Of a stretch of 27,758 bases of DNA, positions 18,761 through 23,581 are shown piece after piece. The stretch is from NCBI GenBank assembly GCA_021793035.1, contig JAJYTM010000001.1, positions 1 through 27,758 of the forward strand, read 5' to 3'. The DNA comes from Candidatus Micrarchaeota archaeon (GTDB lineage: Archaea > Micrarchaeota > Micrarchaeia > Micrarchaeales > Micrarchaeaceae). The notes beneath the pieces were generated by a model. It was not told the DNA's origin. It did not search any database and saw nothing but the letters and a program-made list of their open reading frames with translations. The stretch's first letter is position 1. Every line of letters starts with the position of its first letter. The position numbers were made by a program, and so were the translations under genes.

Positions 18761-19471
18761 TTGGAGTATTCATTCAACAGGGACAAGTCCGAAATAATAT
18801 TCGCGCACATGAAGGACATAAACGCGAGCTACAAGGACCTGTGCAATGTGTGCGATTCCGTGAGGTACAAGAGCGTGCCTGAAGCGATAGCCATACTCGA
18901 TTCCGTCAAGGAGGGCACGCCGCTTCTTTTCAGGAGGCACAACAAGGGCATGGGCTCAAGGCACGAGCTCGGAGGCAAGAAAGGCAGGTACCCGATAAAG
19001 TGCGCTTCGATAGTCAAGAAGGCAATAGTGAACGCATCTGCCAACGCATCGAACAAGGGCCTTGATCCGGATAACATGTTCGTGGTGCATGCGACAGCCA
19101 ACAAGACAACGATAAACCGCAGGTATCCGTCGAAAGGCATACTATACCATAGGTCGGGGGGCTACGGCTATTCATCGGCAAGGCGCAGCGACCTCGAGTT
19201 TGCCAAGCTTGAACTAGGGATAGCTACCGGAACTGAAAAAGGGCTCAGCCAGAAGATGCTTAAGGCAGTGGAACGCAGCAGGAAGTATCTCGAGAAGATT
19301 GAAAAGCAGAAGCCTAAGGCGAAGGCGGCGAAAGCTGCATCGAAGGGCAAGGCGCTCACTTCTCCTGCAGGGCCTGCAAAGTCTGCTAAGAAGCCTGTGC
19401 ACCCGGAAATGCAGAAGAGGCCTGAGCCCGTGAAGACAGATGCGAACGCGCAGGAGGATAAAAAAGTTTAA
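18761..19471 (+). CDS. rpl22: 50S ribosomal protein uL22 with a loop insertion and a ~80 aa C-terminal extension
   Basis: TTG start after GGTGA; SYKDLCNVC, GRYPIKCA, NASANASNKGLD; position between rps19 and rps3. Confidence 0.93.
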   Translation: MEYSFNRDKSEIIFAHMKDINASYKDLCNVCDSVRYKSVPEAIAILDSVKEGTPLLFRRHNKGMGSRHELGGKKGRYPIKCASIVKKAIVNASANASNKGLDPDNMFVVHATANKTTINRRYPSKGILYHRSGGYGYSSARRSDLEFAKLELGIATGTEKGLSQKMLKAVERSRKYLEKIEKQKPKAKAAKAASKGKALTSPAGPAKSAKKPVHPEMQKRPEPVKTDANAQEDKKV

Positions 19472-19482
19472 TGAGGCATTGC

Positions 19483-20106
19483 ATGGCTATAGAGAATAAA
19501 TTTCTGAATGATTCTATAATAAAGCATAGTATATCCAAGTTCATGGAGCAGTCGCTTACCAAGGCGGGCTTCTCCAGGGTAGAAGTGCAGAAGACTCCCG
19601 TGATAACAAGGATAACCGTCTATGTTCTGAACCCAGGAAGGGTGATAGGCAGGGGCGGCAAGACCATAGACGCGCTGACAGACCAGGTCAAGGAGCTGTT
19701 CAAGATGCAGAACCCGCAGATAAGCATAGTCGAGGTGGAGAACCGCATGCTTGAGCCGCTTCTCGTGGCTAAGGACATAGCGCAGAAGCTCGAGCGCGGT
19801 CTCAACTTCAGGAGGATACAGCAGAGCTACCTCAAGAGCATAATAGCCAACGGCGCATTGGGGGTAGAGATAATAATCGGCGGGAAGCTCGTCGCCAAGA
19901 ATGCGAGGGCTAAATCGATAAGGAAGAGCGTTGGGTACATACCTAAGGCCGGAGACGTGACCAACCTGGTCAGGGTTGCCTATGCAACAGCGTACCCGAA
20001 ATACGGCGCCATAGGGATAAAGGTTAGGATAGTGCCGCCAGGCACTAAGTTCCCAGACCGGGAGATAAAGGCAGTGGAGGTTCCGAGATCCATACTCAAC
20101 GGGTGA
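19483..20106 (+). CDS. rps3: 30S ribosomal protein uS3
   Basis: AGFSRVEVQKTP, PGRVIGRGGKTI (KH domain), GALGVEIIIGGKL, KYGAIGIKVRI. Start MAIEN at 19483 after GAGG. Confidence 0.96.
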   Translation: MAIENKFLNDSIIKHSISKFMEQSLTKAGFSRVEVQKTPVITRITVYVLNPGRVIGRGGKTIDALTDQVKELFKMQNPQISIVEVENRMLEPLLVAKDIAQKLERGLNFRRIQQSYLKSIIANGALGVEIIIGGKLVAKNARAKSIRKSVGYIPKAGDVTNLVRVAYATAYPKYGAIGIKVRIVPPGTKFPDREIKAVEVPRSILNG

Positions 20107-20218
20107 ATGGGTCGATGCAAAATCGCAATAAACGGTTTGCAGCGGAATCTCTTTATTCGTTGCCTAAAAAGTCTGTCTTGGAATGCGCGGTTCACTGCGT
20201 CACGTTCCAAAATGTGTG

Positions 20219-23200
20219 ATGGTTACTATGCTTCTAGCCTTCGAAACGGGGTTCATAGCCTTCTTTACGATGTTCATACCTGGGGTGCTTCTAGCATACG
20301 CATTGCTCAGGAAGACCGGGCTCCACACATTTGAGAAGCTCGTCATAGGGTTCATATTCGGCCTCATAGCGCCAGCAACGCTTACATGGATAGATGCATA
20401 TTTAATGCCGTACATCCACATATTCGCATTCTCATTGCCCCTATTCGAAGCCAACGCGCTAATAATAACAATAGTCGCTGCACTGATCTGCTGGAAGGAA
20501 GGCGTATTCAACGACCTCTCGCAGTATGTCAATGCAAAAGCAAAGCGCGCTGTAGAGGAGCGGCAGATAAAATCGGCAGAGCACGCCGAATCGATGGAGC
20601 TCTCTGAGCTAAGGTCAAACCTGAGGGGCTTCGAGAAGGCGCAGTCAATAATCAAGCAGCATGAAGATGAGGAGAGAGCGCTGAGACAGAAGCAGGAAGC
20701 AGAGCTGTCGCACACTTCCGGCCTTGGAGAAGAAGAAAGAGCAAGAATATCAGAGCTGCACAACAAGGCGCTAACGGACCTCATAGGCAAGCACGTCTCG
20801 GAGGAGAAGGGCATGCTCGCCGCGCTCAAGAGGGAGCAGGAGGAAATAGAGCTCAAGAGCAAGTCCGCCGAGGCATCGCCTCGCCATTCTACACCAACAT
20901 GGGTGTGGTGGGTGCTGCTGCTGTTCATGGTAATTACATTCGCTACGCGCATGCTCAGCGTTCCAATAACCCCCGCATTCTTCGAATTTGATCCGTATTT
21001 CGATATGCTCGCGACAGAGCATCTTCTGACTTTCGGATACCAGCCGCTGCTGTCGCATTCGGCGTGGCCAATATTGGCAAACGGCTCGGTCCTGAGGATG
21101 CAGCCCCTTATCCCATACCTGGAGGCTTATTGGTACTCTCTCGCCAACTATCTCGGCCCCCACTTCACCACGTTCAACACTACGCTTATGAGCTATGTTG
21201 GCGGTGTGTATCCGCCAATCACAGCCGCGCTTCTCGTGTTCGTAATATTCATGCTGCTTTACAATGAGTACGATCCTTATGTAGGCCTCATAGGCGCTTC
21301 TTTCGCCATGGCAATGCCGATACTGTTCACTACATTCGTATCCGGGGAGCAGCTCCTGGAGCCATGGGGCATATTCACGTTATTCTTCTTCTTTGCAGCG
21401 TACATGCTCGCAGTAAAGAACATGAAAAGCACGAGGCTTGCCATATTTGCAGGGATAGCGTTCGCATCTACCTTCTTGGGCGCCCACTACTATACGGTAG
21501 ATGCGGGGGTATTGACTCTGTACATCATACTGCAGGGAGTGATAAGCTACCTGAGAGGAGATCTAGGCAAGGATTTCTACAAGATGAATGCCATCGTGAT
21601 AATAGTCATCGCAATATTCCTTGCATTCTATTCGCCGTACCACGCGACGCTGAGCGGGCGCATACCAACAGTGCTTGGAATACCGATAACAGTGAGCGGC
21701 CCGCTCGCAGCATTGATACTCGTAGCTGTCATAGACTACCTGCCAAGGATTCTCAAGCAGTACCATGTGCTGTTCAATAGGATAGACTTGAAGATGAAAG
21801 TGCTGTGGCTCGTGGCAATAGCGATAATGGTGCTCGCGCTGCTCGCCGCTACGCCTCTGGGCACCCCAGTAAAAGGCTACCTTAGCCTGAGCACGAAGTT
21901 CACCACGCCATCGACTCCGCTTTTCATGACAGTGCAGGAGTTCGAGCCGACAGGGCTGGCGTACAACTTCGGCGCGGCTGGGCTCGGCATAATCGCATCT
22001 AGCATGTTCGGCGTGCCGCTTTTCGTATGGTTCCTATCGGCATTGGCGATAATACTCATATGCATCAGCATATACTACCGCAGAAGCAATACCGGCATAT
22101 TCTACCTTATGATTGCACTACCGCTAATGGTCGCTGCTTTCTCCGAGGTCAAGTACATACCGCACTTCGGCGTTGCATACATAATGCTCCTCGGCATAGT
22201 GATAGGAGAGGTAGCGGTGCTGGCAGGGAACAACTTCAAGCTCAAGCATGAGACAGACGAAAGCATATCGGCCCTGATAAAGCGGGCCTATACGGAGCAC
22301 AAGGACCTCATGTATTTCGTGTTCAGCATAGCGCTGTTCTTCTTCTCGCCGATAATTGCTATAATATACCTTCTATTCATACTTTTCACGCACAGGACCG
22401 AGAACAGGAACTATATGTGGGCGCTTCTCGGCTTCTTCTTGATCGTAGAAATTGCAGGGGCAGTGTTCGGGCACCCGATATACGGCGAGAGCTATTCGCT
22501 TATAGAAGCCGTGGGGTCAACGACCCTTTACTACGGCTCCCCATCTACTGCATGCTCATCCCTGAGCAGCGGCGGCAATTCTGTAGGGCTTGACCTATAC
22601 TGCAACGTCGTTCCGACATACTGGCTGTCGGCACTGTCATGGATGAAGAGCAACATAGGCCCGAACGGCCCTAGGGTCATGTCCTGGTGGGACTATGGCG
22701 ACTGGATAAACTGGTTCGGCCAGACGCCTACCGTAACGAGGGGCGACAACGCAGAGCCCACAGAGGACTTCGCAGTCGCAGCCAACTACGTGCTCGGCCC
22801 GAAGGACAATTACACCCCTGCTGTCATGGACAACTTCATGAACACCAATCAGACCAAGTACATAGTGTTTGACCAGGGCCTAATACAGAAATGGGGTGCC
22901 TTGGATTTCCTTGCATGCATACACATAAACGAGACATCAAGGGCATTTGCGATAGCCGAGGGCAAGCTGCAGAATCCTCCAGTTCCATACGCTCTGGGCA
23001 ACTCGCCATGCGAGCTGGCCCACGATCCGCAATACGTGCTTGTGCCATTGCCTACGCTAATACCAACCATAGAGAAGCCTACGATAAATGAATACTGCTC
23101 AATATCAAATTCGAGCACCCAGTATGCGTACTCCTATCTTGTGAACAACAATTCACTCACAAACCAGTCCGTCTGCATCGACCTGAATCCGACTAACAGC

Positions 23201-23581
23201 GGCGCATTCAAGGTCTATTACCAGAACGGCACCCAGATGAATGCGTACGTACAGGCAATCACCCAATCGCCCCTCGGGGAGACCGCGCTGGCAAACGGAG
23301 GCCCACTATACCTGGAGTACCTGATGGTGTACACGCCGAACGGCCCCAACGACACCATAACAAATGCTCCATCGGAGTTTTACTTGTCAAACTTCTACAA
23401 AGGGTTCTTCTTCGGGAAGCTGCCAGGGTTTACGCAGGTATATCCGGCAAACGCAACTGGCATAAACTTCATCAACAACACATATCCGATACGCATACTA
23501 GCGCTTGACAATTTCACCGGCCAGCTTCCACCGAAGGCATCAAAGCCCAGCTATGTTGTGAACAACTATACGTTCCCATGA
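20219..23581 (+). CDS. aglB: Oligosaccharyltransferase AglB (STT3) with an N-terminal membrane plus coiled-coil extension
   Basis: EFDPYF, MTVQEFEP (TIxE-like) and SWWDYGDWI (WWDYG) motifs; multi-TM core and sequon-rich extracellular C-terminal domain. Start uncertain (20219 or 20228). Confidence 0.93.
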   Translation: MVTMLLAFETGFIAFFTMFIPGVLLAYALLRKTGLHTFEKLVIGFIFGLIAPATLTWIDAYLMPYIHIFAFSLPLFEANALIITIVAALICWKEGVFNDLSQYVNAKAKRAVEERQIKSAEHAESMELSELRSNLRGFEKAQSIIKQHEDEERALRQKQEAELSHTSGLGEEERARISELHNKALTDLIGKHVSEEKGMLAALKREQEEIELKSKSAEASPRHSTPTWVWWVLLLFMVITFATRMLSVPITPAFFEFDPYFDMLATEHLLTFGYQPLLSHSAWPILANGSVLRMQPLIPYLEAYWYSLANYLGPHFTTFNTTLMSYVGGVYPPITAALLVFVIFMLLYNEYDPYVGLIGASFAMAMPILFTTFVSGEQLLEPWGIFTLFFFFAAYMLAVKNMKSTRLAIFAGIAFASTFLGAHYYTVDAGVLTLYIILQGVISYLRGDLGKDFYKMNAIVIIVIAIFLAFYSPYHATLSGRIPTVLGIPITVSGPLAALILVAVIDYLPRILKQYHVLFNRIDLKMKVLWLVAIAIMVLALLAATPLGTPVKGYLSLSTKFTTPSTPLFMTVQEFEPTGLAYNFGAAGLGIIASSMFGVPLFVWFLSALAIILICISIYYRRSNTGIFYLMIALPLMVAAFSEVKYIPHFGVAYIMLLGIVIGEVAVLAGNNFKLKHETDESISALIKRAYTEHKDLMYFVFSIALFFFSPIIAIIYLLFILFTHRTENRNYMWALLGFFLIVEIAGAVFGHPIYGESYSLIEAVGSTTLYYGSPSTACSSLSSGGNSVGLDLYCNVVPTYWLSALSWMKSNIGPNGPRVMSWWDYGDWINWFGQTPTVTRGDNAEPTEDFAVAANYVLGPKDNYTPAVMDNFMNTNQTKYIVFDQGLIQKWGALDFLACIHINETSRAFAIAEGKLQNPPVPYALGNSPCELAHDPQYVLVPLPTLIPTIEKPTINEYCSISNSSTQYAYSYLVNNNSLTNQSVCIDLNPTNSGAFKVYYQNGTQMNAYVQAITQSPLGETALANGGPLYLEYLMVYTPNGPNDTITNAPSEFYLSNFYKGFFFGKLPGFTQVYPANATGINFINNTYPIRILALDNFTGQLPPKASKPSYVVNNYTFP

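Follow-up and report, generated by a model that had tools for sequence, protein, structure and literature searches.

The oligosaccharyltransferase AglB of the archaeal phylum Micrarchaeota carries, ahead of its catalytic core, a module of three transmembrane (TM) helices that is conserved phylum-wide, always fused to the enzyme and single-copy, and that is followed in part of the homologues by a charged cytoplasmic hairpin which has probably been deleted many times. We describe this extension in the aglB gene of a Candidatus Micrarchaeota archaeon, whose contig JAJYTM010000001.1 (assembly GCA_021793035.1) supplied the whole stretch of 27,758 nucleotides that was analysed and is called the window below. 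AglB, PglB and STT3 are textbook enzymes of 13 TM helices, and the Micrarchaeota are host-dependent, lipid-scavenging cells. To our knowledge, the prokaryotic oligosaccharyltransferases (OSTs) are taken to consist of a single subunit and to work without accessory parts. No description of an AglB N-terminal extension of such kind was found in the literature, and the 16-TM form is a so far undescribed variant of a known enzyme whose function we infer. The observations as a whole are best explained, with a probability that we put at about 0.6, by an obligatory membrane module built into the enzyme together with a dispensable cytoplasmic arm.

The protein is a divergent but motif-complete AglB/STT3 (GT-C, GT66). 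This assignment is carried by its motifs and its fold, because the scores of the curated hidden Markov models (HMMs) fall under their cut-offs (20.5 bits against 23 for Pfam STT3-PglB_core, 19.3 against 27 for the AglB_core-like model and 56.7 against 450 for TIGR04154 archaeo_STT3); in annotation, such proteins are mostly labelled "hypothetical". Membership of TIGR04154, the archaeosortase A-associated subfamily, was accordingly rejected, and its alignment was used solely for locating TM1. Across 73 homologues the Asp of external loop 1 (EL1, D258), the T571 and E574 of the TIXE/SVSE-type motif in external loop 5 (EL5) and the entire WWDYG motif are invariant, and a DK-like motif is also present. 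These are the elements that it shares with AglB and STT3 in general. The full-length AlphaFold2 (AF2) model (mean predicted local distance difference test score, pLDDT, 88.6; predicted template modelling score, pTM, 0.86) has the multi-TM domain and the C-terminal mixed alpha/beta domain of an STT3 fold, and a Foldseek search with it placed STT3A, yeast Stt3, AfAglB-L and PglB on top (probability 1.00, E 3e-16 to 4e-10); the core fold is thus that of Archaeoglobus fulgidus AglB-L (PDB 3WAJ/7E9S) and of STT3A, STT3B and Stt3 (E 3e-16 to 5e-12). As to sequence, the best PDB matches and the EL1 motif of the eukaryote-like FDPYF type are both STT3A-like; the TM domain is closer to eukaryotic STT3A (E 1.6e-12) than to the archaeal AglBs of solved structure, which are matched only through their C-terminal domains.

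The departure from these enzymes lies ahead of TM1. TIGR04154 aligns residues 231-715 to its profile positions 2-479, and positions 204-690 of our family profile align to residues 19-474 of human STT3A; because both alignments begin there, about 200-230 residues must precede the canonical TM1. In the solved enzymes TM1 starts from about residue 10-20 (about 72 in STT3B, after a tail that lies outside the alignment), whereas here it starts from residue 228 with three TM helices in front of it, and the EL1 motif comes about 200 residues later than in the solved STT3 proteins. A Kyte-Doolittle plot has three hydrophobic segments in residues 1-95 and the next one from W228 (nucleotide 20900), and the full-length AF2 model has helices at 2-29, 37-62, 73-93, 96-120, 125-135, 139-164 and 171-218, followed by TM1 at 227-245. 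The total comes to 16 predicted TM helices, provided that the core holds the canonical 13. A preliminary description of the window had recognized this region as extra relative to the known AglB, PglB and STT3, which proved correct for every solved or modelled member, and its boundaries (linker 20504-20899, core from 20900) were reproduced exactly by hydropathy and composition. It had, however, taken the extension for a single module of ~230 amino acids (aa); the extra length stands but the unity does not, as the 3-TM part is retained and the hairpin repeatedly lost.

The topology of AglB is typically one of 13 TM helices, and the enzyme of Methanocaldococcus jannaschii, with 15 TM helices of which two are additional and internal, offers a precedent in the archaea for helices beyond that plan (PMC5131992). 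There, however, some 70 aa are inserted internally (PMC5131992), whereas that of the Micrarchaeota is N-terminal, is made up of three helices with, in the lineage of the window, a cytoplasmic hairpin of ~130 aa, and is kept phylum-wide.

An extension of such length invites the suspicion of an artefact, that is, of two genes or of a wrong start, with the true AglB beginning near residue 220, and some database entries do indeed consist of short N-terminal pieces. Those pieces are accounted for by contig ends and frameshifted assemblies, and no conserved Met stands ahead of TM1. The gene lies in a single open frame, 20183-23581 on the plus strand, right behind the uS19-uL22-uS3 genes. Its start is at 20219, since the upstream ATG at 20183 and the 36 nucleotides after it are unconserved in a genome of the same genus, although the coding sequence is otherwise close, and since in-frame stops occur a few codons 5' of the equivalent Met in ten other genera of the window's family. 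The preliminary description had placed the extension in one open frame, and the frame is continuous from 20219 to 23581; rather than the two separate proteins that it had named as the contrary case, about 150 genomes show a continuous open frame, and just one of them has a single internal stop. Purifying selection acts along the entire N-terminus (dN/dS, the ratio of nonsynonymous to synonymous substitution rates, against the same-genus genome is 0.029 in the module, 0.113 in the linker and 0.033 in the core), which argues that the region is no chance open frame. The suspicion of an artefact is effectively refuted already, and we allow it next to no weight.

The 3-TM module is common to all of the >100 full-length homologues, and its consensus reads roughly IPGxLLAxALLKKTxLxxFE, GFIFGLIAPATLTWxESYL and FSLxLFExNA, then G. 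P21, G22, L29 and G48 are invariant, as is G44 among the 49 sequences with a long linker, and E39, W57, E59, S72, L75 and N79 are almost so; the constraint on the module is that of the catalytic core. Its topology was read, by the positive-inside rule, from the mean number of lysines and arginines per loop over 73 sequences: 0.0 in the N-tail (outside), 2.4 in the loop between TM-a and TM-b (inside), 0.03, with about 2 acidic residues, in the loop between TM-b and TM-c (outside), 2.4 after TM-c and 1.8 before TM1 (both inside). This pattern points to an N-out protein in which three helices are followed by a cytoplasmic linker and by a TM1 that runs from in to out, in the canonical STT3 orientation. 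By the same reasoning the external loop 58-78, which is acidic, devoid of K and R and furnished in and around it with the conserved W57, E59, S72, L75 and N79, would be exposed on the outer side of the membrane.

A single-sequence search over 201 genomes sampled across the phylum recovered the module in 150, including 56/56 of the group f1 and 33/35 of the group f2, with one copy in each genome and always in frame with AglB. These frames measure about 900-1150 aa in nearly all cases, and the shorter ones are mostly cut by contig ends. Among five "negative" genomes that were checked, four have an AglB and the fifth has no AglB match; three of the four have a divergent three-helix N-terminus ahead of EL1, which there falls at about residues 130-150, and in the last one AglB is cut by a contig end but TM-c is retained. 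To the question raised in the preliminary description, whether all Micrarchaeota AglBs have the module, these counts answer that it is present across the phylum. An exhaustive phmmer search of residues 1-235 against 1.84 billion cluster representatives gave 30 matches only, all at the extreme N-terminus of their protein; the full-length matches and most of the fragments run on as AglB, and those that carry a name belong to the Micrarchaeota.

The hairpin (residues 96-227, 36% D/E/K/R) behaves differently from the module. In the lineage of the window it adds about 100-120 aa of helical hairpin to the loop between module and TM1. Linker length is bimodal, 49 sequences falling at 108-136 aa and 24 at 13-50 aa, and the short linkers are mutually unrelated in sequence whereas the long ones have conserved positions in common (R132, L135, H148, E152, L155, E162, H192, E195 and E196, of which R132, H148 and E196 are invariant). 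Mean column identity is 0.40 in the linker against 0.68-0.69 in its flanks, and by dN/dS selection does act on it, though three to four times more loosely than on those flanks. On a FastTree phylogeny of the core only, rooted on a divergent short-linker outgroup, the basal ingroup branches have long linkers and the hairpin was already there at the base of the main clade; it takes 10 state changes to fit the linker lengths to the tree, and well-supported branches force at least 9 of these. The hairpin was thus probably gained once, early, and deleted about nine times independently, and its repeated loss, together with its dN/dS, gives it the look of an accessory element.

Such losses, the lower conservation and the dips in AF2 confidence at residues 120-123 and 216-221 might also be expected of a flexible spacer without any function of its own, a merely tolerated expansion of a loop. 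A dN/dS of 0.11 is far from 1, however, the length has been held at 108-136 aa in the 49 sequences, three of the positions are invariant and the helices are predicted with a pLDDT of 91-96 over residues 131-210; we therefore judge a mere spacer to be quite unlikely. The charged region had previously been described as a long coiled coil. A charged helical region it is, but AF2 predicts an intramolecular helical hairpin, in which a periodicity of about 3.5 appears in residues 125-164 only and residues 171-218 are without a clear heptad signal. A weak internal repeat relates residues 143-162 to 176-195 (hhalign probability 70%). Foldseek with the N-terminal model (residues 1-226) gave nothing at E<2.5; the best PDB folds, none of them significant (E at least 2.5), are antiparallel coiled-coil hairpins, among them an actinobacterial RNA polymerase beta-prime insert and the LSD1 tower, and also designed helical-bundle oligomers. 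Because the K+R topology makes the charged region cytoplasmic, a direct role of that region at a cell-contact site, one of the sites suggested earlier for the extension as a whole, is excluded. His/Glu motifs recur within the hairpin (QHEDEE, LHNK and KHVSEE; 20654-20818, residues 146-200), and H148, E152, H192, E195 and E196 may come together between the arms as a His/Glu cluster that binds metal or senses pH.

The hairpin could also be an oligomerisation element, by which two or more AglB molecules would pair, their cytoplasmic hairpins making up a four-helix bundle; a metal or pH-dependent contacts at the same His and Glu residues might add to its stability. The long amphipathic helices with their partial periodicity, the conservation of these five residues on two arms, the internal repeat and the kind of folds that came nearest all speak for such pairing. 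Yet the element is dispensable in many lineages, the second arm has no clear heptad signal, and the characterised AglB and PglB act as monomers, all of which leaves this proposal doubtful.

In the explanation that we prefer, the 3-TM module would be obligatory and integral to the membrane domain, packing against the TM1 side of the STT3 core. In some homologues the linkers are as short as 13-17 aa, which means that TM-c must lie near TM1. AF2 was run as a monomer both on the full-length protein and on the N-terminal part without the core; the module has a pLDDT of 91-98 in the former and of 82-93 in the latter, and the gain is largest at residues 51-90 (from 82-89 to 92-97), which is consistent with a contact between module and core. 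The short linkers, the GxxxG motif of TM-b and this rise in pLDDT would together place the module on the TM1 side. The GxxxG helix and the acidic external loop with W57, E59 and N79 would then face the outside of the membrane and could help there to hold the core or to shape a site for the lipid-linked oligosaccharide or the substrate; the module would play in cis the part that small membrane subunits play in trans beside the eukaryotic STT3, although it is unrelated to them. The hairpin, for its part, would be a dispensable cytoplasmic arm concerned with docking, oligomerisation or regulation rather than with catalysis. Several points weigh against this picture. The site at which the module would pack on the core is a deduction, a high pLDDT in TM helices is a local measure and no proof of docking, and any role of the hairpin is conjecture. 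The module was not found outside the Micrarchaeota in the single-sequence search of 1.84 billion representatives, and the term phylum-specific is meant in this sense. The outgroup branches of the tree are long and FastTree was its only method, which makes the count of losses approximate, and recombination between lineages is a possible alternative source of the hairpin's distribution.

A quite different origin was proposed in the preliminary description, which saw in the extension a possible fused accessory subunit; a once-independent small membrane protein with a coiled coil would have been joined to AglB and would attach the enzyme to the ribosome or the Sec translocon, so that glycosylation takes place co-translationally. 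The cytoplasmic position of the charged hairpin makes such a contact geometrically possible. A search for standalone modules, made with the module profile among proteins of 55-175 aa, gave eight short proteins, all of which are contig-end fragments or pieces on frameshifted long-read assemblies. Two of the eight are on long contigs where the neighbouring Cpn60, HisRS and uL3 genes are also fragmented, and since the adjoining genes are equally chopped these two are frameshift artefacts. On the contigs L017 and L018 (ENA ERZ25039480 and ERZ25039587; 172-352 kb) most genes, including those for Cpn60, HisRS, uL3 and AglB, are broken, which is typical of uncorrected long-read indels and seeds false "short proteins" in the protein databases. 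The sole exception to the absence of a standalone family is a singleton of 192 aa (P0141, L019:2726-3304), in which a convincing module is followed by an unrelated Gly/Thr-rich C-terminus; on its contig of 3.6 kb the gene is transcribed away from a Wzm/Wzt-type ABC exporter, and a putative lipoprotein comes after it. With its different C-terminus P0141 favours a fusion, but no homologues of it were found, and it could stem from a chimeric contig or else represent a second, rare use of the module.

Searches with the N-terminal region itself identified no family or fold for it. The module profile had 0 matches among PDB sequences at E<=10, Pfam and NCBIfam gave noise only on residues 1-235, and at E<=10 Pfam showed no consistent family and no OST-subunit family among 24 module sequences (DUF6077 appeared in 3/24, best E 0.026). 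In the ESM Atlas residues 1-100 scored at most 0.85, with DUF6541, DUF6077 and DUF1616 as mere leads. An internal duplication of STT3 helices was also considered as the source of the module and rejected (hhalign probability 0.3%). The module thus has no likeness to Ost3/6, DC2, DAD1, Ost4 or Ost5, or to any Pfam or PDB entry, which together with the absence of a standalone family and about nine losses of the hairpin tells against a fused subunit.

The genomic neighbourhood had been thought to hint at docking. As had been reported, aglB sits directly behind the ribosomal protein (r-protein) operon, the last gene of which, uS3, ends at 20106; the order uS3-aglB recurs in 11/11 loci of the window's family, in several genera. 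In 18/18 module-carrying loci of other families, however, uS3, uL22 and uS19 are absent from the 3 kb upstream, and two members of the window's own family (L014 and L016, with frames of 1028 and 1025 aa) have lost the hairpin but kept the adjacency. The module must therefore be older than this gene order, and the hairpin does not depend on that order; uS3-aglB is a trait of a single family and provides no evidence for docking to ribosome or translocon. RNA-library contigs from relatives bridge the 3' end of uS3 and the AglB core, a weak indication that could reflect DNA carry-over; the window's own genome is not in the metatranscriptome runs, in which only contigs of relatives span the region. 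On balance we hold that a fusion of this sort is unlikely. The r-protein cluster ends at uS3 with no uL29 next to it, and across the family aglB occupies that slot. The spacer between uS3 and aglB contains a TATA-like TTTATT, which the same-genus relative has as well and which may be a promoter of aglB's own.

Two known systems resemble the extension in outline. The eukaryotic OST small subunits (the C-terminal TM helices of Ost3/6, DC2/OSTC, DAD1/Ost2, Ost4 and Ost5/TMEM258) likewise place a few TM helices beside STT3, but they are alike by analogy only; they are separate polypeptides without sequence or fold similarity to the Micrarchaeota element, which lies in cis, and membership of the module among them is unsupported. 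The Oxa1/YidC/DUF106 superfamily has the same ingredients, three TM helices and a cytosolic helical hairpin, but was rejected as a relative; its order is TM-hairpin-TM-TM rather than TM-TM-TM-hairpin, and there was no Foldseek or HMM match. It is a very long shot, in our estimation, that the module is an independently arisen cis analogue of the eukaryotic small subunits and that the hairpin at the same time tethers AglB to the ribosome-SecYE translocon. Were both true, the long-linker Micrarchaeota would glycosylate co-translationally, in a prokaryotic counterpart of the STT3A-DC2-Sec61 arrangement.

That a whole archaeal phylum keeps the 16-TM form, with added helices as constrained as the active site, suggests that the membrane domain needs something more than the usual core provides, be it stability in foreign lipids or a way to handle the substrate or the lipid carrier. 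With its repeated losses the hairpin amounts to a natural deletion series, which would make the question a testable one.

Table 1. Positions in the window of the aglB gene, its parts and the adjoining features
Feature	Position	Strand	Residues	Remarks
aglB open reading frame	20219..23581	+	1120 aa plus stop	Divergent STT3/AglB oligosaccharyltransferase with 3 additional N-terminal TM helices
N-terminal 3-TM module	20219..20503	+	1-95	Hydropathy, conservation, AF2
TM-a	20222-20305	+	2-29	Invariant P21-G22
TM-b	20327-20404	+	37-62	G44xxxG48 motif
TM-c	20435-20497	+	73-93	
Charged helical linker/hairpin	20504..20899	+	96-227	Composition, AF2, conservation
Hairpin helix 1	20504-20623	+	96-135	AF2
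Hairpin helix 2	20633-20713	+	139-165	AF2
Hairpin helix 3	20729-20872	+	171-218	AF2; turn at 166-170
Canonical STT3 TM1	20900..20956	+	228-246	TIGR04154 alignment from 231; AF2 helix 227-245
EL1 catalytic motif FEFDPYFD	20981..21004	+	255-262	D258 invariant
EL5 TIXE/SVSE-type motif TVQE	21929..21940	+	571-574	T571 and E574 invariant
WWDYG motif	22685..22699	+	823-827	Invariant
uS3 gene	19471..20106	+		Last of r-protein cluster, directly upstream of aglB
TATA-like TTTATT	20152..20157	+		uS3-aglB spacer; conserved in same-genus relative; possible promoter

Some of the Micrarchaeota AglB homologues have, in addition, a C-terminal extension of about 550 aa (P0112, 1669 aa; G151:C22, with a frame of 1705 aa), to which a precomputed Pfam match, PF13573, is attached. 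The genome of the window also encodes a second STT3-like paralogue of 831 aa (L002:1240-3735, on G000 contig C81), which is without the 3-TM module, has an EL1-like FFEPDGFYHY and IWPDGS in place of WWDYG, and has a charged tail of ~55 aa at its N-terminus. At L005:1141-2904 there is a further GT-C protein, the third, with a length of 587 aa.

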